Below, piece by piece: positions 2,712 to 21,918 of a DNA stretch of 24,000 nucleotides. The stretch lies in contig DWVH01000038.1 of the NCBI GenBank assembly GCA_019120335.1, positions 34,321-58,320 of the forward strand. The letters run 5' to 3'. Numbering within the stretch: the stretch's first letter is position 1; every line of letters starts with the position of its first letter. The notes under the pieces are model-generated. The model saw nothing but the letters and a program-made list of their open reading frames with translations. It did no database searches and was not told the origin of the DNA. This DNA comes from Candidatus Enterococcus stercoripullorum (GTDB taxonomy: Bacteria > Bacillota > Bacilli > Lactobacillales > Enterococcaceae). Position numbers and translations under genes: made by a program.

Positions 2712-2737
2712 AGGGATTCTATTGTGAGGTGATATTC

Positions 2738-3325
2738 ATGCGGAAAGTTTTTCCTTTATTAATTATAATTGTTTTACTATTTCTGTTAGCAATTTTAGTT
2801 AGTTTATATCAATCAAAAACCACAATTTATGTAGATAAATCGTGGACAATACAAGAAAAAAATATAGAAAGTATTGATTTGTATGGTACTGAACAGCCTA
2901 TAAAGGTATTGATAGATAACGAAAATAAGTTTGAAAGAACAGTGGTAAGCGTATCAGGAAATGTTTCAAAATCAACTTTAGATACAATAAAAAAAGCAAA
3001 AAATAGAAAAAGTAAGTTGTATATTCCGTTTTCTCAAAAAGGTTTTAAATTGATAACGACGTCAATTGGGAAAGATGAATTGATAGTGAAGATACAATTA
3101 GGACGAAATGCAACTTTTAAATTTATCAATATAAACACTTGGAATGGGAAAATCACAGTAAAGGTACCGAAAAATTATGACGGTAGTTATGATGTAAAAT
3201 TAAATCAAGGAGCTAAATTAATTGAATGTCCTCCTACTGAAAGAACAATGAAAAGTGTTATAAAAATAGATGCTTATCAAGATACAATTATTGAAAGAAG
3301 CGATAGAAATGATTCATCATCATAA
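2738..3325 (+). CDS. Membrane-anchored, beta-rich extracytoplasmic protein of unknown function (possibly DUF4097/LiaG-like)
   Basis: ATG at 2738 follows SD GAGGTGA (the track start 2729 has no SD). Single N-terminal TM (FPLLIIIVLLFLLAILVSL). Alternating beta-like segments such as NTWNGKITVKVPKNYDGSYDVKL. The family assignment is tentative. Confidence 0.55.
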   Translation: MRKVFPLLIIIVLLFLLAILVSLYQSKTTIYVDKSWTIQEKNIESIDLYGTEQPIKVLIDNENKFERTVVSVSGNVSKSTLDTIKKAKNRKSKLYIPFSQKGFKLITTSIGKDELIVKIQLGRNATFKFININTWNGKITVKVPKNYDGSYDVKLNQGAKLIECPPTERTMKSVIKIDAYQDTIIERSDRNDSSS

Positions 3326-10344: not shown

Positions 10345-11604
10345 ATGAAAACACTTAAACAACAAATCAATCATTATGTATTTCCCTTAATCGCCAGTCA
10401 GTTGCTACAGATGGCGATTGGCATTGTAGCACTACACTTTGCAACAGCTGGTTCTACGCATTCACTCTCCGCTATTACGATTATTCAAAATTTTTTATAT
10501 GCCTTTGGTGGAATATTAGGGGCATTTAGCCTGAGTTTTAATATTTTGGCGGCGCGAAGTTTTTACCAAGAGAAGCAACAGTTCCAGCAATTTGTGCATT
10601 CAGCCTTGCGCTTGTGTTTATTGTTTGGCGGGGGCTTCTTCGCTCTTTGCTTGCTTTTTGGCAAACTGTTTTTGCGATATTTTTATGGCTTTCAAGGGGA
10701 ACTATTACTAAAAGCGAGTCAGTATCTCTATATCATGTCGGGTTATATCTTACTATTATTGCTTTCGTTTCTCTTTAGCAATCTTCTCAAATTCGCCCAA
10801 AAGACAACAGTGATTTTTCGTATCGGCGTAATCAGTGCTTTACTCGAATGTGGTTTGAATATAATTTTAGTGCCACTTTGGGAGATTCAAGGGGCGGCCT
10901 TAGCGAATATGGCGGGTGTCTTGTACCTCGTATTGGCCTATTTATGGCATATTTTCCCCATCCTCAAGCAAAGTCTCATGCAATCGGCTAATCAAATGCT
11001 TGCTATCACACGCTTAGGTATTCCGTTAGCCATCCAGGAAATATTTGAGAGTGTCTTATTTATCCTAGTTTTTGAAAGTTTTATGGGACATTTGGGGAAT
11101 ACTACGCTAGGTGCTTATGCTGTCATTTCTCAAATGTTTGCAATTATAAAATTACCAAGCTTATTGTATGCCAATAGTTTGCCAATCTTTTTACCAGAAG
11201 TCACTCAAAAACAAAAGTCACAACTGTTAAAATGGTTATTGCGGGTAAATTTTCTATTGTTTATTGGGTTATCCATCGTAGGAACTTTGACTATCCCAGC
11301 TTTTGCGCAACTATTTACCCAGCAAATATTTAGTCACTTAACATTCATGGCGGGATTTACTTTTAGTGTGATGCTAGCTGTCCCGTTTTATGAAATTATT
11401 AAGGTCTACTTACAAGCGCAAAATCAAGAAAAAATGGTTGTTACGCAAACAATTATTGTCAATCTAGCAGGTTTGCTCGTGATGTTTGTTTGTCAGTTGA
11501 TACATATTCAAACTTACTATAGCCTATTTGTGGTCTTTGGCTTGACGCAAGTGGTGCTCGCACTTAGATTTTTTCAGGCCAGTTTTCAGCAAAATTTAAA
11601 GTAG
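10345..11604 (+). CDS. MATE/MOP-superfamily multi-TM transporter (efflux or flippase type)
   Basis: About 12 hydrophobic segments. The N-terminal PLIASQLLQMAIGIV... region resembles the MATE N-lobe. ATG 10345 has SD AAAGGA 6 nt upstream. The track start 10288 lies inside the promoter/terminator region. Confidence 0.65.
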   Translation: MKTLKQQINHYVFPLIASQLLQMAIGIVALHFATAGSTHSLSAITIIQNFLYAFGGILGAFSLSFNILAARSFYQEKQQFQQFVHSALRLCLLFGGGFFALCLLFGKLFLRYFYGFQGELLLKASQYLYIMSGYILLLLLSFLFSNLLKFAQKTTVIFRIGVISALLECGLNIILVPLWEIQGAALANMAGVLYLVLAYLWHIFPILKQSLMQSANQMLAITRLGIPLAIQEIFESVLFILVFESFMGHLGNTTLGAYAVISQMFAIIKLPSLLYANSLPIFLPEVTQKQKSQLLKWLLRVNFLLFIGLSIVGTLTIPAFAQLFTQQIFSHLTFMAGFTFSVMLAVPFYEIIKVYLQAQNQEKMVVTQTIIVNLAGLLVMFVCQLIHIQTYYSLFVVFGLTQVVLALRFFQASFQQNLK

Positions 11605-11610
11605 ATTTCA

Positions 11611-11639
11611 TTGCATTTCCCTAAATTTTTCGCTATAGT
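11611..11639 (+). promoter_or_regulatory. Sigma-A promoter candidate for rlmN (TTGCAT-17-TATAGT)
   Basis: Hexamers at 11611-11616 and 11634-11639 with a 17-nt spacer. Confidence 0.5.
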
Positions 11640-11672
11640 GGATACGATATTGATAAAGTGAGGGAAAAACGA

Positions 11673-12731
11673 TTGAAACCATCTATTTATGGATTAGAAA
11701 AAACAGAATTAATTGCCTGGTTTGAAGCAAATGGAGAAAAGAAATTCCGTGCGACTCAAGTTTGGGAATGGTTATATGAAAAGCGAGTGATGACTTTTGC
11801 GGAAATGACCAACCTATCCAAAGCATTGATTGCTAAATTAGAAGAGAACTTTGAGATTTGTCCGTTAAATCAAATTGTCGTGCAAGAATCAAGTGACGGT
11901 ACAGTAAAATATTTATTTGAATTACCTGACAAAAATATGATTGAAACAGTGTTAATGCGTCAAGATTATGGGATGAGTGTCTGTGTGACGACGCAGGTGG
12001 GCTGTAATATTGGTTGTACCTTCTGTGCGAGTGGCTTATTGAAAAAACAACGCGACCTAACAGCAGGGGAAATCATGGCCCAAATCATGCTTGTGCAACA
12101 CTATTTTGATGAGCGTGACTTAGGTGAACGTGTTTCTCATATCGTGGTGATGGGAATTGGTGAACCTTTTGATAATTATGATAATGTAACGAAATTTTTA
12201 CGCATCGTGAATGATCCTAAAGGTATGGCTATTGGTGCACGTCATATTACTGTTTCAACGAGTGGGATTGTACCGAAGATTAAAGAATTTGCTGATAATG
12301 GTTTACAAGTAAATCTTGCAATCTCTTTACATGCGCCAAATGATGAATTACGTACCTCTATTATGCGCATTAACCGCAGCTTCCCATTGGCAAAATTAAT
12401 GGATGCGGTAGATTTTTATTTAGAAAAGACTAACCGCCGTATTACCTTTGAATATATTATGTTAGCAGGCGTGAATGACCGTGTGCATCATGCCCAAGAA
12501 TTGGCGAATTTACTCAAAGATAAGAAGAAATTAGCCTATGTGAACTTAATTCCATATAATCCAGTCAGTGAACATGACCAATATTCAAGAAGTAGTAAAG
12601 ACGATGTATTGCGTTTCTATGATACATTGAAGAAAAATGGCGTTAACTGTGTCATCCGTAAAGAACACGGAACCGACATCGATGCCGCCTGTGGCCAACT
12701 ACGAAGCAAACAAATGAAAAAAAGGTCGTGA
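11673..12731 (+). CDS. rlmN: 23S rRNA (A2503-C2)/tRNA methyltransferase RlmN, radical SAM
   Basis: CNIGCTFC radical-SAM cluster motif. N-terminal [13 protein letters not shown]-terminal catalytic Cys (AACGQL). TTG start at 11673 (MKPSIYG...) lies 7 nt after SD GAGGGA. The track uses GTG 11658. Confidence 0.92.
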
Positions 12732-12976
12732 GAAGGGTCGAACAGCTACAAGCAAAAGGTTATCAATCAACTAGGTCAAATACGAGAAAATTCATGCGTT
12801 ACCTACTGCTAAGAAAATCGGATGAAAGGAGATTTTCTTAAGCAGTAGGGTGAATTTTCCGAGTATTTAGTTGATTGATACCGAGAAAGCTAAGTTTGTC
12901 CGGAATGCCAGGAAAATCCACTATGTTTTAAGATTTTCCTAGGCAGGCCGGCTTAGATGCGATGTAGCTACCCTTC
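12732..12976. repeat. Highly structured ~245-nt intergenic element (MITE-like or structured RNA): closing stem plus two long imperfect hairpins
   Basis: Hairpin 1 spans 12758-12882 (GGTTATCAATCAACTA...TAGTTGATTGATACC, inner CCTACTGCTAAGAAAATC / GATTTTCTTAAGCAGTAGG, loop GGATGAAAGGA). Hairpin 2 spans 12890-12956 (CCGGAATGCCAGGAAAATC / GATTTTCCTAGGCAGGCCGG). The closing stem is GAAGGGT..AGCTAC (12732-12749) with GTAGCTACCCTTC (12964-12976). The inner 88 nt recur at 19538-19625. Confidence 0.55.
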
Positions 12977-13044
12977 GAACGCCGTGGATAAGGTCGTAAA
13001 TCGACTCGGGCAGCTACGAGCAGCATGGAATAAAAAAGTTTATG

Positions 13045-13080: not shown

Positions 13081-13231
13081 TGCATATCCAAAATTGAAAT
13101 CTAATTGTTTGAAATAATCTGAATTTTTTTATTTATGAAAAAGAACAGAAAAAAATCAATAAATCCCTAATAATATTAATATAAAAAGGTTTTGACTAAA
13201 AATAAAAACAATAAATAGATAGTAACTTTCA

Positions 13232-13246
13232 AATATTCTGAAAAAT
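13232..13246. promoter_or_regulatory. CodY-box-like motif upstream of oppA
   Basis: AATATTCTGAAAAAT matches the Firmicute CodY consensus AATTTTCWGAAAATT at 13/15 positions. It lies about 25 nt upstream of the -35. opp/dpp operons are classical CodY targets. Confidence 0.4.
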
Positions 13247-13269: not shown

Positions 13270-13298
13270 TTGCAATTTTAATAATTATTATTTAAAAT
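13270..13298 (+). promoter_or_regulatory. Sigma-A promoter candidate for oppA (TTGCAA-17-TAAAAT)
   Basis: Hexamers at 13270-13275 and 13293-13298 with a 17-nt spacer, about 50 nt upstream of the ATG. Confidence 0.55.
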
Positions 13299-13349
13299 TG
13301 CATTAAGCTAATTTTTTTTAAAATAAAATTAATGATAGGGGAGTTTAGT

Positions 13350-15017
13350 ATGAAGAAAAAATGGGCGATTGCAACTCTGGCAGTTTGCGGATTAGTGTTA
13401 GCGGGCTGTTCAACAGGAAACTCATCAAAAAAAGAAGAAAGCAAATCTTCTGACACAGCAGCAGTAGCGAAAAAACAAGTCTTTAATATGGTTGAGGGTG
13501 CTGAAATGCCATCAGCAGACCTTTCATTAGCAACAGATGAAGTGAGTTTTTCAGCTTTAAATAACTGCTATGAAGGTCTATATCGATTAGACAAAGATAA
13601 TAAACCAATTCCTGCAGGTGCTGCAGAAATGGCAAAAGTAAGTGAGGATGGATTAACTTACACATTAAAATTACGTGAAGATGCCAAATGGTCAAATGGC
13701 GACCCAGTAACGGCGAAAGATTATGTTTATGGTTGGCAACGTACAGTCGATCCAAAGACAGCTTCTGAATATGCTTACCTATTTGAACCAGTTGCTAATG
13801 CTTCTGATATCACTGCCGGTAAGAAAGCTACAAGTGAATTAGGTATTAAAGCGGTGGATGATTACACACTAGAAATTAAACTAGCAAAGGTAACACCATA
13901 CTTTGACCAATTACTAGCATTTCCAATCTTCTTCCCACAAAATCAAAAAGTGGTAGAAAAATTTGGTAGCGACTATGCAACAAAATCTGAAAATGCTGTT
14001 TATAACGGACCATTTACTTTAGAAGGTTTTGATGGCCCAGGTACAGATACAGAATGGTCTTATGCGAAAAATGATACTTACTGGGATGCTAAAAATGTGA
14101 AATTAGATAAAATCAATGTGAGTGTTATTAAAGAATCTTCAACAGCATTGAACTTATTTAAAGATGGGCAATCTGATCAAGTAACACTAAATGGTGAATT
14201 AGCACAACAGATGGCTAACGATGAAGCTTACTTAACTATTCCAGAAGCTTCAACTTTCTATCTAGAATTTAACCAAAAAGATGAAAAATCACCATATCGC
14301 AATGCTAATTTACGTAAAGCTATTTCCTATGCAATCAATCGTGATTCTCTAGCAAAACAAGTTTTAGCCAATGGTTCAATTGCGACAACGAACTTGATGC
14401 CAGAAAAATTCATTTATGATCCTAAGACTAAGAAAGATTTTGTCAAAGAAGCAAAATCTCCAGTGAAATATGATAAGAAGAAAGCAAAAGAATACTGGGA
14501 AAAAGCCAAGAAAGAACTTGGTGTGAATGAAGTGAAATTAGATATCTTATCTTCTGACTCAGATGTGGCTAAGAAGATGCTAGAATATCTACAAGGCTCA
14601 TTACAAGAAAACTTACCAGGTCTAAAAGTAAGTGTTAGTCCAGTGCCATTCTCAGTTCGTCTAGATCGTTCAAACAAAGGTGATTTTGATACGGTTCTAA
14701 GTGGATGGGGTGCTGACTATGCCGATGCTTCTAGCTTCTTAGATATGTTTACAATTGGTAACAGCTACAACCGCGGAAACTGGAACAATGAAGAATATAC
14801 GAAACTTGTTCGTGCTGCAGCTACTACAGATGCCGCTGATGAAGAAAAACGTTGGGATGACTTTGTAGAAGCTGAAAAGATTATCATGGATGAACAAGGG
14901 GTAGTGCCAATCTATCAAAAAGCAGTTGCCTATATGCGTAATCCAAAAGTCAAAGGTATCGTCAACCACCCAGCTGGTGCGAAATACGACTTCAAGTGGA
15001 CTTACATCGCTAAATAA
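13350..15017 (+). CDS. oppA: Oligopeptide ABC transporter substrate-binding lipoprotein (family 5 SBP)
   Basis: ATG 13350 lies 6 nt after SD AGGGGAG. Lipoprotein signal with lipobox LAGC. Size and sequence are typical of OppA/DppA SBPs. Sits next to oppBCDF. Confidence 0.9.
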   Translation: MKKKWAIATLAVCGLVLAGCSTGNSSKKEESKSSDTAAVAKKQVFNMVEGAEMPSADLSLATDEVSFSALNNCYEGLYRLDKDNKPIPAGAAEMAKVSEDGLTYTLKLREDAKWSNGDPVTAKDYVYGWQRTVDPKTASEYAYLFEPVANASDITAGKKATSELGIKAVDDYTLEIKLAKVTPYFDQLLAFPIFFPQNQKVVEKFGSDYATKSENAVYNGPFTLEGFDGPGTDTEWSYAKNDTYWDAKNVKLDKINVSVIKESSTALNLFKDGQSDQVTLNGELAQQMANDEAYLTIPEASTFYLEFNQKDEKSPYRNANLRKAISYAINRDSLAKQVLANGSIATTNLMPEKFIYDPKTKKDFVKEAKSPVKYDKKKAKEYWEKAKKELGVNEVKLDILSSDSDVAKKMLEYLQGSLQENLPGLKVSVSPVPFSVRLDRSNKGDFDTVLSGWGADYADASSFLDMFTIGNSYNRGNWNNEEYTKLVRAAATTDAADEEKRWDDFVEAEKIIMDEQGVVPIYQKAVAYMRNPKVKGIVNHPAGAKYDFKWTYIAK

Positions 15018-15083: not shown

Positions 15084-15422
15084 TTAAAAGTAACCAGAAA
15101 AAAGTAGACAAAGCACACTCGAAAGTAAGAGTAGGCCACTTATTTCAAAAAAGAAGCGGGAACTACCTTTACTTGCTTGTGAGAGTGTAAGATCATCTTC
15201 TTTTAATTTTTTGAAGGCTTTTTTCATGGAGTAATGGAAGAAATCAAACACTCCAGAAGATAAAATCCACAAAAAGACGGCAATGATTAAAAACGGCAGC
15301 ATGGATAAAAATAAGGTGTCTGAAAGATTGACCAAATGTAATTCATGCTTTATTGTGAGAAATCCTATATTGCCTAGTAAAATAATGAGATATAGATAAA
15401 GAGACCACTTTTTTGGGCGCAT
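15084..15422 (-). CDS. Small membrane protein, 112 aa (DUF3899-like, tentative)
   Basis: The minus-strand ATG at 15422 is preceded by SD AAAGGAG (the track start at 15482 lacks an SD). Two or three TM segments and a central amphipathic KKAFKKLKEDD segment. Confidence 0.55.
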   Translation of the reverse strand: MRPKKWSLYLYLIILLGNIGFLTIKHELHLVNLSDTLFLSMLPFLIIAVFLWILSSGVFDFFHYSMKKAFKKLKEDDLTLSQASKGSSRFFFEISGLLLLSSVLCLLFSGYF

Positions 15423-15518
15423 AAGAAGCTCCTTTCTTGGTTTATCTATGCTAAATGTACACAAAATAAAGTGAGAAGTCAAAAAAATCCTATACTTAAA
15501 AAATTGGAGGGAACCTAT

Positions 15519-16460
15519 TTGAATAGTTATGTAAAATATATTCTTAAGCGACTATTCTATATGGTGATTACTTTGTGGTTGATTGCTACCATTACTTACT
15601 TTTTAATGAAGCTTCTACCTGGTACACCATATACCAACGCTGAGAAATTATCTAAAGAACAAATTGCTATTTTAAATAAACAAATGGGGCTTGATCAACC
15701 AGTCATTGTTCAATATGGAAAATATTTATGGAACGCCCTACACTTTAATTTCGGAACCAGTTTCCAATTTAAAAATCAACCTGTTGCTTCATTATTAATG
15801 GATCGTATCGGCCCTTCCTTACAATTAGGTTTCCAAGCCATTGTTGTAGGTACGATTTTCGGAACAGTTTTAGGGGCGATTTCAGCCATGAAGCAAAATA
15901 CTTGGGTGGATACCTTGGCGACTTTAGTGGCTATCATTGGTCGTTCGATTCCTAACTTCGTGTTTGCGGTATTATTACAATATTTCTTTGCGATGAAATT
16001 ACATATTTTACCAATCGCGAAATGGGAAGGTTTTGCGTATACGATTTTACCAACGATTGCCCTTGCGATGAGTCCATTAGCCGATTCTGCTCGTTTTATT
16101 CGTACAGAAATGGTTGAAGTCTTACATAGTGATTATATCGAATTAGCGCGTGCCAAAGGATTGAGTCGTTGGCAAATTGTTTTCCGTCATGGTTTACGTA
16201 ATAGTTTGATTCCATTATTAACATTATTAGGACCTTTAGCAGTCGGTTTGATGACTGGTTCATTGGTTATCGAAAATATTTTTGCTATTCCAGGTATTGG
16301 GGAACAATTCGTTAAATCAATTACTACGAATGACTATCCAACCATCATGGCCGTAACAATCCTTTACTCTACAATGTTGGTTGTCGTTATCTTAGTGGTC
16401 GATATCCTTTATGGAATTGTTGATCCTCGTATTCGTGTATCAGAAGGGAGTCGTGGCTAG
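15519..16460 (+). CDS. oppB: Oligopeptide ABC transporter permease
   Basis: TTG start (MNSYVKYILKR...) lies 6 nt after SD GGAGGGA. BPD-type permease with an EAA-like loop (YIELARAKGLSRWQIVFRHGLRNSLIP). The track's upstream GTG start is less plausible. Confidence 0.9.
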   Translation: MNSYVKYILKRLFYMVITLWLIATITYFLMKLLPGTPYTNAEKLSKEQIAILNKQMGLDQPVIVQYGKYLWNALHFNFGTSFQFKNQPVASLLMDRIGPSLQLGFQAIVVGTIFGTVLGAISAMKQNTWVDTLATLVAIIGRSIPNFVFAVLLQYFFAMKLHILPIAKWEGFAYTILPTIALAMSPLADSARFIRTEMVEVLHSDYIELARAKGLSRWQIVFRHGLRNSLIPLLTLLGPLAVGLMTGSLVIENIFAIPGIGEQFVKSITTNDYPTIMAVTILYSTMLVVVILVVDILYGIVDPRIRVSEGSRG

Positions 16461-17501
16461 ATGGAAGCGAAACAAATGTATGAAGAGATTGCCAAAATTC
16501 CTGCTTCTGAATTTGAATTTCTACAAAAAGATACCGTTGAAGAACGTGAAGCCATTGCCGCCCCTTCTTTGACATTCTTGCAGGATTCATGGCGTCGATT
16601 AAAGAAAAATAAAGCCGCTGTATTTTCAATTACTTTATTAGCGATTATTTTAGTTGTGAGTGTGGGCGCAATTTTCTTCTCACCACATAATCCAGCTAAA
16701 CAAAATATTGACTATATTAATTTGCCACCAAAAATTCCTGGTGTAGATATCAATGGTCTTAATGGGAAAACCATGGTCGGGGGTGAATTAGTTGATAAAT
16801 ATAAAGAAGCTGGCGTCCCTAAAAATGTGTACTTTATCTTTGGTACCGATAGTTTAGGTCGCGATTTATTAAGTCGCTTATTAATGGGGACGCGAATTTC
16901 GCTATTTATCGCCTTTATTGCAGCAATTCTTGATATTTCCATCGGGGTAGTTGTCGGTTTGGTTTCTGGATTACTTGGTGGACGTGTCGATACGATTTTA
17001 CAACGTTTGATTGAAATTTTATCTGGTATTCCAACCTTAGTCGTGATGATTTTAATGTTAGTTGTATTTAAACCGGGGATTCCATCAATCATTGCGGCGA
17101 TGGCGATTACCAACTGGATTCCAATGGCCAGAATTGTGCGGGCTCAATCCTTGAAATTAAAAGATCAAGAATTTGTACTCGCAGCTACTACATTAGGTGA
17201 ATCAAAAATGAAGATTGCGTTTAAACATATCTTGCCAAATATTTCTAGTGTGATTATTGTACAAATGATGTTTAGTATTCCATCAGCAATTTTCTTCGAG
17301 GCCTTCTTAAGCTTTATCGGTTTAGGGATTAAGCCACCGGCAGCTTCTCTAGGGATGCTTTTGAGTGATGGATATAAGACATTCTTATTCTTGCCATATC
17401 AAATGTGGATTCCAGCCATTATGCTATCGGTAATTATGATTGGGTTTAACCTTTTAGCAGACGGTTTACGTGATGCTTTTGACCCTAAGATGAAGGAGTA
17501 A
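16461..17501 (+). CDS. oppC: Oligopeptide ABC transporter permease
   Basis: ATG abuts the oppB stop. N-terminal OppC-type extension. EAA-like loop (EFVLAATTLGESKMKIAFKHILPN). Confidence 0.92.
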   Translation: MEAKQMYEEIAKIPASEFEFLQKDTVEEREAIAAPSLTFLQDSWRRLKKNKAAVFSITLLAIILVVSVGAIFFSPHNPAKQNIDYINLPPKIPGVDINGLNGKTMVGGELVDKYKEAGVPKNVYFIFGTDSLGRDLLSRLLMGTRISLFIAFIAAILDISIGVVVGLVSGLLGGRVDTILQRLIEILSGIPTLVVMILMLVVFKPGIPSIIAAMAITNWIPMARIVRAQSLKLKDQEFVLAATTLGESKMKIAFKHILPNISSVIIVQMMFSIPSAIFFEAFLSFIGLGIKPPAASLGMLLSDGYKTFLFLPYQMWIPAIMLSVIMIGFNLLADGLRDAFDPKMKE

Positions 17502-17507
17502 ACAAAT

Positions 17508-18560
17508 ATGAAAAAAATTCTAGAAGTAAAAGATTTAGAAATTTCATTTGACACCTTCGCCGGCAAAGTGCAAGCCATCCGTAATGTGAGTTTTGATTTA
17601 TATGAAGGGGAGACCTTAGCGATTGTAGGGGAATCCGGAAGTGGTAAATCAGTCACTACTCGAAGTGTCATGGGCTTACTTGCAAGTAATGCCAATATTG
17701 AAAATGGTCAAATCTTATTTAATGGTCAGGATATTGTACAAAAGACCGAAAAAGAAATGCAAAAGATTCGTGGGAAAGAGATTGCAATGATTTTCCAAGA
17801 TCCGATGACTTCTCTGGACCCAACTATGCCAATTGGAAAACAAGTAGCAGAATCCTTGTTAAAACACACTAAAATTTCGAAAAAAGAAGCAATGGAACAA
17901 GCTTTAGAATTATTAAAACTAGTAGGCATTCCGAATGCTGAGAAACGCTTGAACAACTATCCACACCAATTTTCAGGTGGGCAACGTCAACGGATTGTCA
18001 TCGCGATTTCTTTGATTTGTTATCCACAAATTTTAATTGCTGACGAACCAACCACTGCGCTAGACGTAACGATTCAAGCCCAAATTTTAGAACTATTAAA
18101 AGATATTCAAGAAAAAATTAAAACATCGATTATCTTTATTACCCACGATTTGGGGGTAGTAGCAAATGTGGCAGACCGTGTAGCTGTTATGTATGGAGGA
18201 AAAATTGTAGAAATCGGAACTTCTGAGGAAATTTTCTATAATCCGCAACATCCATATACTTGGGGATTACTAGGTTCAATGCCATCCTTAGAAGGTGGGG
18301 AAGAGCGGCTGTATGCAATTCCTGGGACACCGCCTGATTTATTACAACCACCAAAAGGAGATGCTTTCTATCCACGAAATGAGTATGCTTTAAAGATTGA
18401 TGCTGAAAAACAACCACCATTCTTTGAAGTGTCACCAACGCATAAGGCTGCTACTTGGTTATTAGCACCTCAAGCACCAAAAGTAACACCGCCGAAAGAA
18501 ATTCAAATTCGTTGGGCAAAATTTGCAGAAAAAAATCAAATAAAAAAAGGTCAAGCCTAG
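17508..18560 (+). CDS. oppD: Oligopeptide ABC transporter ATP-binding protein
   Basis: Walker A GESGSGKS, signature FSGGQRQR, Walker B LIADEPTTALD. C-terminal oligopeptide/dipeptide ABC extension (HPYTWGLL). Confidence 0.93.
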   Translation: MKKILEVKDLEISFDTFAGKVQAIRNVSFDLYEGETLAIVGESGSGKSVTTRSVMGLLASNANIENGQILFNGQDIVQKTEKEMQKIRGKEIAMIFQDPMTSLDPTMPIGKQVAESLLKHTKISKKEAMEQALELLKLVGIPNAEKRLNNYPHQFSGGQRQRIVIAISLICYPQILIADEPTTALDVTIQAQILELLKDIQEKIKTSIIFITHDLGVVANVADRVAVMYGGKIVEIGTSEEIFYNPQHPYTWGLLGSMPSLEGGEERLYAIPGTPPDLLQPPKGDAFYPRNEYALKIDAEKQPPFFEVSPTHKAATWLLAPQAPKVTPPKEIQIRWAKFAEKNQIKKGQA

Positions 18561-18575: not shown

Positions 18576-19520
18576 GTGAAAAAAGTTTTATTAGATGTTA
18601 AAAATTTAAAACAATATTTTAACGTTGGCCGCAAAGATGAAGTTAAAGCGGTAGATGACATTACTTTCCATATCTATGAAGGGGAGACTTTTGGCTTGGT
18701 AGGTGAGTCAGGAAGTGGGAAATCGACTACTGGCCGTACGATTATCCGATTAAATCAACCAAGTGGCGGGGAAATCACTTTTGATGGAAAAGATGTTATG
18801 AAGTTGAAAAAACGCGATGAATTAAAAGAATTTCGTCGTGAAGTACAAATGATTTATCAAGATCCTTATGCATCTCTAAATCCACGGATGAAGGTTCGTG
18901 ATATTATTGCTGAAGGGATTGATATCAACCATTTAGCAAAAAGTGAAGCAGAACGTAATCAAATGGTGGATGATTTGCTAAAAACAGTAGGGTTAAATCC
19001 AAACCATGGTACACGTTATCCACATGAGTTTTCTGGTGGACAACGACAAAGAATTGGGATTGCGCGTGCTTTAGCGGTTAATCCGAAATTCATTATCTGT
19101 GATGAACCGATTTCTGCGTTAGACGTATCGATTCAAGCGCAGGTTGTTAACTTATTACAAGACTTGCAAAAAGAAAAAAATCTTACCTATTTATTTATTG
19201 CCCATGACTTATCGATGGTGAAACATATTAGTGACCGTATCGGCGTAATGCATCATGGTAAATTACTTGAAATGGGTATAAGTGATGAAATTTATCATTA
19301 TGGGGTACATCCATATACAGAAAGTCTGCTATCAGCGATTCCATTACCTGATCCAGATTATGAACGCACACGCAAACGTATCAAGTATATACCACCTAAA
19401 GAAGACGGAATACCACGAAAGATGCAAGAAATCGCAGAAGGCCATTATGTCTATGCTAGCGATGAAGAAGCCAAACACTTTGCCGAAAAACTAGCAGAAA
19501 AGAAAAGGAAAAGGATGTGA
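18576..19520 (+). CDS. oppF: Oligopeptide ABC transporter ATP-binding protein
   Basis: GTG start after SD AAAGGAAG. Walker A GESGSGKST, signature FSGGQRQR, Walker B IICDEPISALD. C-terminal HPYTESLL motif. Confidence 0.93.
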   Translation: MKKVLLDVKNLKQYFNVGRKDEVKAVDDITFHIYEGETFGLVGESGSGKSTTGRTIIRLNQPSGGEITFDGKDVMKLKKRDELKEFRREVQMIYQDPYASLNPRMKVRDIIAEGIDINHLAKSEAERNQMVDDLLKTVGLNPNHGTRYPHEFSGGQRQRIGIARALAVNPKFIICDEPISALDVSIQAQVVNLLQDLQKEKNLTYLFIAHDLSMVKHISDRIGVMHHGKLLEMGISDEIYHYGVHPYTESLLSAIPLPDPDYERTRKRIKYIPPKEDGIPRKMQEIAEGHYVYASDEEAKHFAEKLAEKKRKRM

Positions 19521-19537
19521 GGTAGCTTGGGAAGCCT

Positions 19538-19625
19538 CGAAGAAATTCGTGTGCTTACCAAATGCTGAAAAAATCGGATGAAAGGAGATTTTTTCAAGTA
19601 GGAGGGCGAATTTCACAATATCTAG
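19538..19625. repeat. Second copy (~88 nt, diverged) of the inner hairpin of the 12732-12976 element
   Basis: Aligns with 12783-12870. The 23-nt core AAAATCGGATGAAAGGAGATTTT is identical (12814-12836 and 19570-19592). Its own arms still pair (GAAATTCG/CGAATTTC). The flank GAGGTAGCT...CTCGAAG resembles GATGTAGCT...CTTCGAAC at 12961-12980. Confidence 0.55.
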
Positions 19626-19654
19626 CTGCCGAACATCAAAATAAGGTTGATTCG

Positions 19655-20596
19655 ATGAAAAATTTAAAGGGTTATCGATTTAGAATTTATCCCAATGAAG
19701 CTCAAAAAAGGTTCTTCATTGAAACATTTGGTTGTGTTCGATTTATCTATAATTATTTTCTGAAGTTAGATACTGCTGAGCGCACAAGTGAAGAGGTAAT
19801 CACGCCTGCAAGTCTCAAGCGTGATTATCCCTTTTTAAAAAAGACAGATAGTCTAGCCCTTGCAAATGCGAAAAGAAATTTAGATAGGGCTTTTCAAAAT
19901 TACTATCAACAGCGTAGTGGCTATCCTAAGCTAAAAAATAAGAGTTCGGCCTGGCAATCTTACACTACTAATAATCAAAATGGGACGGTTCGTATAGAGG
20001 ACGGTTATCTGAAATTGCCAAAGTTAAAAGAAAAAATTCAAATATGCGAACATCGAAAAATTACTGGCAAAATTAAATCAGTGACCATTTCAGCTAAAAA
20101 TAACGAGGAGTTTTATGCTTCAATTTTGTGCGTAGAATCCATTGATAAATTTGAGAAAACAGGTAAAAACATTAGACTTTCTTTTGATGCACATCAATTA
20201 GTCCAACAAGCGAAATATCGTGCTGAAGTAATTGAATCCATTCAGCAAACGAAAGGACGTCTAGCGTTTTTACAACGAAGATTAAAGGTAAAGGCTCGGG
20301 GTGCGCGTAAGCAAAATCGGATATTAGCCGACTGTAAGAATTACCAGAAGCAAAAAAAACAGTATGACAAATTATTGACACACTTTAATAATCAAATAAA
20401 AGATTATTTAAACCATTTATCTATCTTTTATATTAAGGAATATGATGTAATCGAAATTGTCGAACCAGAAGATAGGTCTTGTGCTGAAGATGCATTATTC
20501 ACTAGTAATGAATGGCATCAATTAGTTCGTTTATTAAAATACAAAGCACAATGGTACGGTAAAGAGATTCAAATCATAAATTGTCAAAATATTTAA
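19655..20596 (+). CDS. TnpB-like protein, C-terminally truncated with RuvC motifs non-canonical or absent (313 aa); candidate TldR-type nuclease-dead RNA-guided repressor
   Basis: The N-terminus MKNLKGYRFRIYPNEAQKRFFIETFGCVRFIYNYFL is the hallmark TnpB (IS200/IS605 OrfB) start. PKLKNK..., LKLPKLKEKIQ and LKYKAQWYGKEIQII are also conserved. Where TnpB has vGiDlG it reads NIRLSFDAHQ; where it has IxIEDL it reads VIEIVEPED. The ORF stops right after WYGKEIQIIN, so the CxxC...CxxC zinc finger and the RDxNAAxNI RuvC-III motif are missing. Start is taken at ATG 19655; the track's 19562 start runs through the repeat. Confidence 0.75.
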   Translation: MKNLKGYRFRIYPNEAQKRFFIETFGCVRFIYNYFLKLDTAERTSEEVITPASLKRDYPFLKKTDSLALANAKRNLDRAFQNYYQQRSGYPKLKNKSSAWQSYTTNNQNGTVRIEDGYLKLPKLKEKIQICEHRKITGKIKSVTISAKNNEEFYASILCVESIDKFEKTGKNIRLSFDAHQLVQQAKYRAEVIESIQQTKGRLAFLQRRLKVKARGARKQNRILADCKNYQKQKKQYDKLLTHFNNQIKDYLNHLSIFYIKEYDVIEIVEPEDRSCAEDALFTSNEWHQLVRLLKYKAQWYGKEIQIINCQNI

Positions 20597-20685
20597 ATAA
20601 AAATAACTGGTAGGGGTGCCAGGGTTCGCCTAGGTAATAATTGATTTGTTTCTAGGAAATGTGCCCACTAATTATGAAAAACCAC
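20450..20685 (+). ncRNA. Presumed omega-RNA-like guide RNA (scaffold overlapping the tnpB-like 3' end plus a short guide); boundaries not determined
   Basis: Inference from the TnpB/TldR family, where the guide RNA scaffold overlaps the 3' end of the ORF and the guide follows it. About 90 nt of non-coding sequence lies between the stop (20596) and a terminator hairpin (20691-20713). I could not define the scaffold fold by eye. Confidence 0.3.
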
Positions 20686-20719
20686 AAAAAAATCAGCCTA
20701 TTCCGGGCTGATTTTTTTA
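20685..20719. terminator. Bidirectional rho-independent terminator shared by the tnpB-like locus (+) and the Nudix gene (-)
   Basis: AATCAGCC (20691-20698) pairs with GGCTGATT (20706-20713). Flanked by A7 upstream and T7 downstream. Confidence 0.7.
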
Positions 20720-21525
20720 TCGGTCTTTAATTGGTAGATTTTTGATGGTCGTCCAACACCACTTGCACGTTCACCGATAGCTTCTAAATGATCATTCAAT
20801 GCTTTTTTGAGGTTAGAGTGGTCAATATTTTTAAAATCAATGCCTAAAAATTTAGCAAAGACTTTTCTGGCATCGGTAATCGTAAAGCCAGGTCCCAATA
20901 CCAATAGTACGCGTGGGTCATGCATCATTGTTTCTAATACATGATGGAAAGCCTTAAGAATAATTTGGCTGTGGTCAAAGGCTAAGGTATCTTTTCCAAG
21001 GGATTCACCGTTTTCTAAATCGAGAATGATTTGTGTTTCTTGGTTTTCTAGGACGATTGTATTTTGTTTGCGATTTAAATTAAACCAGCGCACTTGGCTC
21101 GCATCATCGCCGGCATCTACTGGCTCTTCACCGATAAAGGCTAAATAGCTAACAGTTACCACCCAACCACGAGGGTCACGATTTGGCGTAGAAAATGTGT
21201 AGAGCTGTTCAATTTGATTTTGGTTAATATGTACGCCAGTTTCTTCTAATGTTTCGCGAATGACACTATCATCAGTGGACTCACCTTTTGAGACGAATCC
21301 TCCAGGTAAGGCCCAAGAATGACGGAATGGGTGACTTTTACGCTGAATCAATAGCAATTTCAGTTGTTCTTCTTGACGATTATAACAAAGCAATACCATA
21401 TCTACGGTTAAAGAAGGGGATTCGTAGGTAGGATGTTCTTGTTCATGGTACCACTTTAAGAATTCTTCTTCCGTTGCGATTTGTTCGTAATATTTTTTTT
21501 CTTCAGATTTTGATGAAAATTCCAT
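20698..21525 (-). CDS. NUDIX hydrolase with C-terminal winged-helix-like domain (NrtR-like architecture)
   Basis: Nudix box GGFVSKGESTDDSVIRETLEETGV (Gx5Ex7REUxEExGU). A C-terminal domain of about 90 aa follows the Nudix fold, as in the NrtR/ADP-ribose pyrophosphatase family. The regulator role is not shown. Confidence 0.8.
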   Translation of the reverse strand: MEFSSKSEEKKYYEQIATEEEFLKWYHEQEHPTYESPSLTVDMVLLCYNRQEEQLKLLLIQRKSHPFRHSWALPGGFVSKGESTDDSVIRETLEETGVHINQNQIEQLYTFSTPNRDPRGWVVTVSYLAFIGEEPVDAGDDASQVRWFNLNRKQNTIVLENQETQIILDLENGESLGKDTLAFDHSQIILKAFHHVLETMMHDPRVLLVLGPGFTITDARKVFAKFLGIDFKNIDHSNLKKALNDHLEAIGERASGVGRPSKIYQLKTDKKISPE

Positions 21526-21845: not shown

Positions 21846-21918
21846 ATTTTAAGTAATTTGTACCTTTATTTCATTACACAACACTTTTCATGAGCTGCCT
21901 CACAACCTTATTTTTCAA

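Follow-up and report, generated by a model that had tools for sequence, protein, structure and literature searches.

The 24,000-nucleotide stretch analysed here, called the window below (contig DWVH01000038.1 of Candidatus Enterococcus stercoripullorum, assembly GCA_019120335.1, forward-strand positions 34,321 to 58,320; coordinates are counted from its first letter), carries directly behind oppF a gene, tldR, for a nuclease-dead derivative of the transposon protein TnpB. It also carries a structured guide RNA 3′ of this gene, and a conserved target-adjacent motif (TAM) with a seed match in the predicted promoter of oppA. With high confidence, we regard it as Enterococcus cecorum's version of the oppF-associated TldR system, in which the guide RNA would direct occlusion of the oppA promoter. 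Judged by its sequence, this is a system already known down to the species' protein and guide, published in 2023/24 and extended in 2026.

According to this model, TldR binds the guide RNA encoded 3′ of its gene, a step that we infer for the window strain and that has been shown for orthologues. The complex would then recognise the TAM TTTAA and pair the guide with a 7-nt seed in the spacer that separates −35 from −10 in the oppA promoter (13277–13290). Bound there, it would exclude RNA polymerase, and OppA expression would fall without DNA cleavage, with little effect expected on oppBCDF or on tldR itself. For published homologues, binding of guide RNA, binding of TAM-flanked targets in sequencing after chromatin immunoprecipitation (ChIP-seq) and repression of reporters have been described, and the tested TldR homologues as a group showed no cleavage in plasmid-interference assays (Wiegand et al., bioRxiv 2023.11.30.569447). 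Moreover, overexpression of TldR and guide RNA in E. faecalis V583 lowered oppA_T about 40-fold and left oppBCDF largely unchanged (Xiao et al., bioRxiv 10.64898/2026.09.22.753285).

A nuclease-dead TnpB derivative behind oppF

The reading frame of tldR starts with an ATG at 19655 on the + strand, its stop codon ends at 20596, and it runs unbroken through 313 amino acids; a longer reading of 344 amino acids from 19562 is a mechanical open reading frame (ORF) only. The protein matches the NCBIfam family guided_TnpB with 136 bits (cutoff 100), IS200_TnpB with E=1e-60, which is under the equivalog cutoff, and Pfam HTH_OrfB_IS605 with 1.3e-14. Its residues 5–306 align with residues 5–319 of ISDra2 TnpB (PDB 8bf8; E=2e-24). 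Of the segment NIRLSF, either R or S falls on the Asp position of the RuvC-I motif GIDLG, according to the aligner used, and Asp is missing in every alignment. The RuvC-II Glu position is taken by the Val of YDVIEIVE in the family alignment, with Glu at −2 and +1. The zinc finger CxxC...CxxC and the HDRDINAS motif (RuvC-III) of intact relatives of 380 amino acids were sought, and no counterpart was found in any frame; these relatives align with tldR only up to residue 320. The protein thus described retains its N-terminal, WED and REC-type parts together with some of the RuvC fold, but none of the three catalytic carboxylates. Within the window, tblastn with the E. cecorum Y1 TnpA found nothing better than E=2.2; left and right transposon ends were not explicitly searched for. 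A preliminary description, made from the letters alone, had reported an uninterrupted ORF of this length with a TnpB-like N-terminus, non-canonical RuvC-I and RuvC-II motifs, an end ahead of the zinc finger and the third RuvC Asp, and a lack of tnpA, and all of these observations are borne out.

It might be supposed that tldR encodes a TnpB that still cuts DNA, its catalytic C-terminus having escaped notice through a frameshift or a sequencing error, a possibility by which the preliminary description proposed to judge its own reading. The Glu residues flanking the RuvC-II position (VIEIVEPED) would suit such an explanation, and HMMER aligns one of them with E278 of ISDra2. However, besides the absent RuvC-I Asp and the failure to find a zinc finger or RuvC-III in any frame, the convergent gene ends only 101 nt beyond the tldR stop codon, and this gap is filled by the guide RNA and a terminator. 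In addition, the stop codon stands at the identical position in all six E. cecorum copies, and published interference assays saw no cleavage by TldRs. The sequence thus already refutes the active nuclease, and we give it practically no credence.

The protein is 98% identical to its counterpart in E. cecorum ESM13AIC1 (locus L001 of the loci fetched for comparison) and 97% identical to that of the type strain DSM 20682 (L002), the very record that supplied Wiegand et al. with WP_016251060.1 ("EceTldR"). For EceTldR, their supplementary dataset gives the guide TAATTATGAAAAACCACAAA and, at the three RuvC positions, S, V and -, so that 0 are intact (Wiegand et al., bioRxiv 2023.11.30.569447), and positions 20669–20688 of the window read exactly this 20-mer. 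From the near-identity of the proteins and the identity of the guides, the window locus is therefore a strain variant of a known, experimentally studied protein. The work of Wiegand and colleagues is reportedly also published in Nature (2024). The window and DSM 20682 agree in species, locus, gene order, guide, TAM and target in the oppA promoter, and their scaffolds differ by 1 nt. They differ in that the window strain is without a second upstream oppA paralogue bearing its own TAM and 6-nt seed site, and in that a dispersed repeat between oppF and tldR is present once in the window, against 2 or 3 copies in the other strain. EceTldR has already been put through sequencing of co-immunoprecipitated RNA (RIP-seq) as well as ChIP-seq (Wiegand et al.). 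Placement of the locus in the oppF clade, which the preliminary description had left to alignment with ISDra2 TnpB and published TldRs, is supported by these alignments.

Among the six E. cecorum-lineage copies, the ratio of nonsynonymous to synonymous divergence (dN/dS) of tldR is 0.02–0.10 at dS of 0.10–0.38, which argues for a function of tldR. Over the same divergence, the 76 nt of scaffold plus guide show 0–3 differences, and even E. columbae, with a TldR of only 59% identity, has an identical promoter block. Of 37 loci checked, which cover two genera with conserved synteny, 36 have an intact tldR ORF (301–347 amino acids). These data also bear on the proposal that tldR is a decaying tnpB remnant of an IS200/IS605 insertion sequence, a functionless pseudogene that stands behind oppF by chance. 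Loss of RuvC residues, truncation of the C-terminus and the lack of tnpA all speak for a remnant, and so does the premature stop at 223 amino acids in the E. innesii orthologue (L056, 10001–10672). Yet dN/dS is low at substantial dS, nearly all reading frames are intact, guide RNA and target are conserved far above neutral expectation, and an orthologue has published activity. A pseudogene is very improbable on this evidence, and is for practical purposes already refuted. The preliminary description had favoured domestication over decay, with a dN/dS comparison as the check and frameshift-riddled orthologues as the sign of error; the ratios agree with domestication, and the orthologues are not of that kind. 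In the E. innesii locus, guide RNA and oppA TAM and target are intact, and this locus may have lost its TldR protein recently.

A structured guide RNA and its predicted target at oppA

A strongly conserved block lies downstream of tldR in about 50 loci of Enterococcus and Tetragenococcus, and reads AACTGG.AGG..C.CCAGGG.TCGCCTAGG, a variable hairpin, TTTTGTTTCTAGGAA....GC.CAC and an invariant TAATTAT. In the window, the scaffold core lies at 20605–20668 (+), and consists of helix P1 (CUGG/CCAG), a pseudoknot (GGGU/GCCC) and helix P2 (CCUAGG/UCUAGG). Because RNAalifold by itself recovered helix P1 only and the minimum free energy fold of the single scaffold sequence was non-significant (z=-1.05), the structure was set by hand, with helices P1 and P2, a P3 that varies, and a pseudoknot in which the P1 loop pairs with the 3′ GCxC, and its pairs were counted on 37 sequences. 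In the four helices including the pseudoknot, 93% of cells are paired and 9 pairs have changed on both sides; none of 500 shuffles equalled the observed covariation score, and all slid controls collapsed. A covariance model, the check that the preliminary description had proposed for the region 3′ of tldR, was built from 33 sequences of other species with E. cecorum excluded. Its sole match in the window is 20605–20680 (73.1 bits, E about 1e-17), the next best candidate reaching 11.7 bits. Rfam at gathering thresholds gave no match anywhere in the window.

The guide TAATTATGAAAAACCACAAA occupies 20669–20688 (+), where the junction between scaffold and guide was placed from the alignment and from the string of TAM and target. 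It starts with TAATTATGA..., does not vary in its first 7 nt throughout the genus, and probably has a functional length of about 9–16 nt. An intrinsic, bidirectional terminator hairpin at 20684–20720 begins ~90 nt past the tldR stop and closes both the transcript of tldR and guide RNA and that of the convergent NrtR-like Nudix gene. This arrangement, with the scaffold ahead of the hairpin, is the one anticipated when a terminator at this distance was first seen to leave room for scaffold and guide.

The proposed target lies far upstream, before oppA. A TAM 5′-TTTAA-3′, a motif defined experimentally in the published papers, is found at 13277–13281 (+), and is followed at 13282–13290 (+) by the target TAATTATTA, which matches guide positions 1–7 and 9 and is mismatched at position 8. 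In the E. faecalis system, the TAM is likewise TTTAA, the target string is TAATTATTT and the seed is 6 nt long (Xiao et al.). The seed match in the window, TAATTAT at 13282–13288, has 7 contiguous nt (8/9 overall) and lies 68 nt upstream of the oppA ATG at 13350. A consensus scan predicts the oppA core promoter at 13270–13298 (+), with −35 TTGCAA at 13270–13275, a spacer of 17 nt and −10 TAAAAT at 13293–13298; TAM and target would therefore fill this spacer. Thus the expectation in the preliminary description that such guides are aimed at opp-type promoters holds at the level of the predicted core promoter.

Chance alone would give 0.18 occurrences of the 12-mer of TAM and seed per window. A tldR locus of 20 kb has the 11-mer TTTAATAATTA a single time, or two times if it holds two oppA paralogues, nearly always 66–88 nt ahead of an OppA-like gene, and the 11-mer is present in only 1 of 23 more distant relatives fetched (L058–L080, mostly full-length TnpB loci). 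In most of the ~50 enterococcal and Tetragenococcus TldR loci, a TAM with a seed of 6–7 nt is found at this distance upstream of such a gene, usually as the only site of its kind in 20 kb. The layout TTGnnn-TAM-target-TAAAAT recurs across the loci of different species. Contiguous complementarity between guide and target is at most 7 nt in all of the ~50 loci, a set to which E. faecalis does not belong, and guide position 8 is G or A where the target usually has T. Another candidate target, TTTAT+TTATGAAAAA at 13128–13142 (10 nt exact, 24 nt at 83%), was rejected; its register is 3 nt off the published and conserved junction, and it is mutated in 3 of 4 other E. cecorum genomes compared.

TldR could also be a functional RNA-guided DNA binder whose key physiological target is not the oppA core promoter, acting at other genomic sites with TAM and seed or in a role other than occlusion. 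Since a seed of just 6–7 nt is sufficient for binding, many genomic sites qualify, and Wiegand et al. showed further putative targets in E. cecorum. In E. faecalis, moreover, transcription starts upstream of the target, and strains deleted for the system had no phenotype (Xiao et al.). The window itself has a single other site of TAM and 7-nt seed, TTTAT+TAATTAT at 2755–2766 (+), which matches the guide at 8/9. This second site is 27 nt inside the mechanical start of the ORF 2729–3325, near genes for an ABC transporter and a C39 peptidase, and could be a chance match or a secondary target. However, the oppA-proximal site is the only one with TAM and seed that is positionally conserved over about 45 loci, and oppA_T was the most strongly repressed gene in E. 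faecalis (Xiao et al.). A key target elsewhere is consequently improbable in our estimation, and occlusion at the oppA promoter is the explanation that we prefer.

Several observations nevertheless weigh against occlusion at oppA. The complementarity of guide and target is short, as given above, and both the promoter and the transcription start of oppA are predictions; in E. faecalis, mapping of the start site overturned an earlier promoter prediction (Xiao et al.). The E. cecorum scaffold is without most of the P3 hairpin (GAAAAAnnn...nnnTTTTT) that nearly all other species have, and 11 positions of the model are missing, and RIP-seq of EceTldR gave a variable guide length (Wiegand et al.). 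Native repression is known in E. faecalis only and upon overexpression only, and in the laboratory nothing changed when the native system was deleted in that species (Xiao et al.). As to scaffold variation, those of the E. faecium group have an additional hairpin ahead of GCTCAC instead.

Other regulators may share this promoter. A perfect 11-bp inverted repeat, TGCAATTTTAA-N10-TTAAAATTGCA at 13271–13302, encloses the TldR target, overlaps the predicted −35 and −10 elements and is identical in E. columbae; it could also be bound by a protein regulator that acts as a dimer. The TTTAA read on the minus strand precedes ATAATAATT, a sequence without a match to the guide seed. In E. cecorum, AATATTCTGAAAAAT at 13232–13246, upstream of the oppA promoter, agrees in 13 of 15 positions with the CodY box consensus, AATTTTCWGAAAATT, and most other species have a similar ATTATTCTGAAAATT between the oppA −10 element and the ribosome-binding site. 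Such CodY-box-like sequences near oppA promoters suggest that OppA may be under joint control of CodY and TldR.

Locus architecture, dispersed repeats and strain variation

Around tldR, the genes are ordered rlmN, oppA, an antisense DUF3899 ORF, oppB, oppC, oppD, oppF, tldR, the convergent NrtR-like Nudix gene and metG. The presumed regulated gene, oppA_T, encodes a substrate-binding protein (SBP_bac_5) at 13350–15017 (+), and the DUF3899 ORF (24.1 bits against a cutoff of 23.4) lies between oppA and oppB at 15084–15482 (−). They are followed on the + strand by oppB (15471–16460), oppC (16461–17501), oppD (17508–18560) and oppF (18576–19520). The end of oppF directly precedes the start of tldR, as initially described, with a spacer of 134 nt between them. 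The same order including DUF3899 was seen in the locus of another enterococcal species (L081/L082), and has been described for E. faecalis V583 with the antisense DUF3899 included (Xiao et al.). Synteny of oppABCDF-tldR-nrtR-metG is kept among strains of E. cecorum and also in a further species of enterococci, which amounts to a fixed chromosomal position.

The following observations on a dispersed repeat and on the loss of a second oppA are minor. A modular intergenic repeat, resembling miniature inverted-repeat transposable elements (MITE) or repetitive extragenic palindromes (REP), is located at ~12720–13025 and ~19511–19649. There are 27 copies in the window and the E. cecorum-lineage loci (L001–L006, L079) and 0 in the fetched loci of other species, and the repeat appears specific to E. 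cecorum. Its core is a hairpin whose loop, GGATGAAAGGA, never varies and whose stem shows covariation from copy to copy. Its 5′ motif, AAGG(A/T)(T/C)GTGA, provides the TGA stop codons of rlmN (12729–12731) and oppF (19518–19520), and its 3′ motif, TAAGGTTG, stands 8 nt upstream of the tldR ATG and could serve as the ribosome-binding site of tldR. The repeat has no Rfam match. It may resemble the EFAR repeats of E. faecalis. Two earlier candidates are resolved into this repeat. The 59-nt repeat at 19555–19613, considered as a relic of a transposon left end, is rather one of the 27 copies in the fetched loci and unrelated to tldR. The segment 12900–12950 (TGCCAGG...CCTAGG), considered as an orphan second guide RNA, is part of the repeat, and the covariance model has no second match.

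Strains differ around these repeats. A segment of ~2.4 kb (L001, 571–2934) is missing from the window at ~12988–12991 and present in the four other E. cecorum-lineage genomes compared (L001, L002, L004, L005). It holds the second oppA paralogue (63–64% identity), which has a TTTAA+TAATTA site of its own 88 nt upstream, and an equivalent upstream oppA paralogue is present in E. columbae. The breakpoint falls inside copies of the dispersed repeat, which suggests that the segment was deleted by recombination between repeats. The spacer between oppF and tldR is also variable. In the window it is 19521–19654, with one repeat copy, and L005 apparently has a single copy as well; in L001, L002 and L004, it is about 340–400 nt longer, with 1 or 2 extra repeat units. 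A similar insertion or deletion of ~280 nt is found at 21875–21899 of the window.

A more speculative possibility, to which we give little probability, combines these observations with the pairing of guide and target. In E. cecorum and most of the enterococci sampled, the 7-nt seed pairing and the conserved mismatch at position 8 might make repression deliberately weak or tunable, and its strength and scope might be reshaped between strains by the dispersed hairpin repeat. Recombination between copies of the repeat would have removed a second oppA that TldR could address from the window strain, and expression of tldR may change with the number of repeat copies that separate it from oppF.

Relations to other RNA-guided systems and significance

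Efa1TldR of E. faecalis is of the same clade, and shares with the window the TAM TTTAA, the first 7 nt of the guide and the gene order including DUF3899; its cryo-EM structure and native repression have been reported (Xiao et al.), and repression of reporters is also published for it. Motifs that hold TAM-reading residues, DSLAL, QSYTTNNQ and YKAxWYGK, are invariant in the family alignment, a comparison at the level of motifs only. The two systems differ in their targets. In E. faecalis, the target is the 9-nt TAATTATTT, downstream of the mapped transcription start and on the opposite strand, whereas in the window the complementarity is 7 nt (8/9) and the site is on the sense strand within the predicted −35/−10 spacer. 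The fliC-associated TldRs of prophages in Enterobacteriaceae follow the same principle, in which a promoter is repressed by a TnpB descendant that has lost its nuclease activity and uses one fixed guide. However, they are an independent domestication, are prophage-borne, use the TAM GTTAT and a guide of 16 nt, and target the host flagellin.

The TnpB proteins of IS200/IS605 elements (ISDra2; EceTnpB, L079) are homologous over residues 1–320, with 39% identity between tldR and L079, and have in common with tldR the layout of guide RNA after ORF and a TAM of TTTAA/TTTAT. They differ by their GIDLG, IEDL and zinc-finger/RuvC-III motifs, a tnpA partner, transposon ends and DNA cutting, and the window locus shows neither the intact RuvC triad and zinc finger nor the tnpA of an active element. 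E. cecorum DSM 20682 itself has an IS200/IS605 element (L079, 9580–10978) with tnpA and a tnpB whose GIDLG and IEDL are intact; this tnpB ORF ends at 328 amino acids, just ahead of the zinc finger, and a C-terminal fragment of an OppA-like gene lies 3′ of the element at 11327–12151. Engineered CRISPR interference (CRISPRi) with dCas12 or dCas9 is alike in that an RNA-guided complex blocks transcription sterically without cleavage. In contrast to it, TldR is natural, has a single hard-wired guide and a very short heteroduplex, and has no CRISPR array.

For this known system, the window adds independent confirmation and strain-level detail only, namely the position of the target in the promoter spacer, the truncated scaffold, the lost oppA paralogue with its target and the repeats beside tldR. 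E. cecorum is a poultry pathogen, and native tests in this species are possibly useful, though conceptually not new. TldRs are transposon nucleases domesticated into natural CRISPRi-like transcription factors, and the oppF clade ties this domestication to control over which peptides enterococci import.

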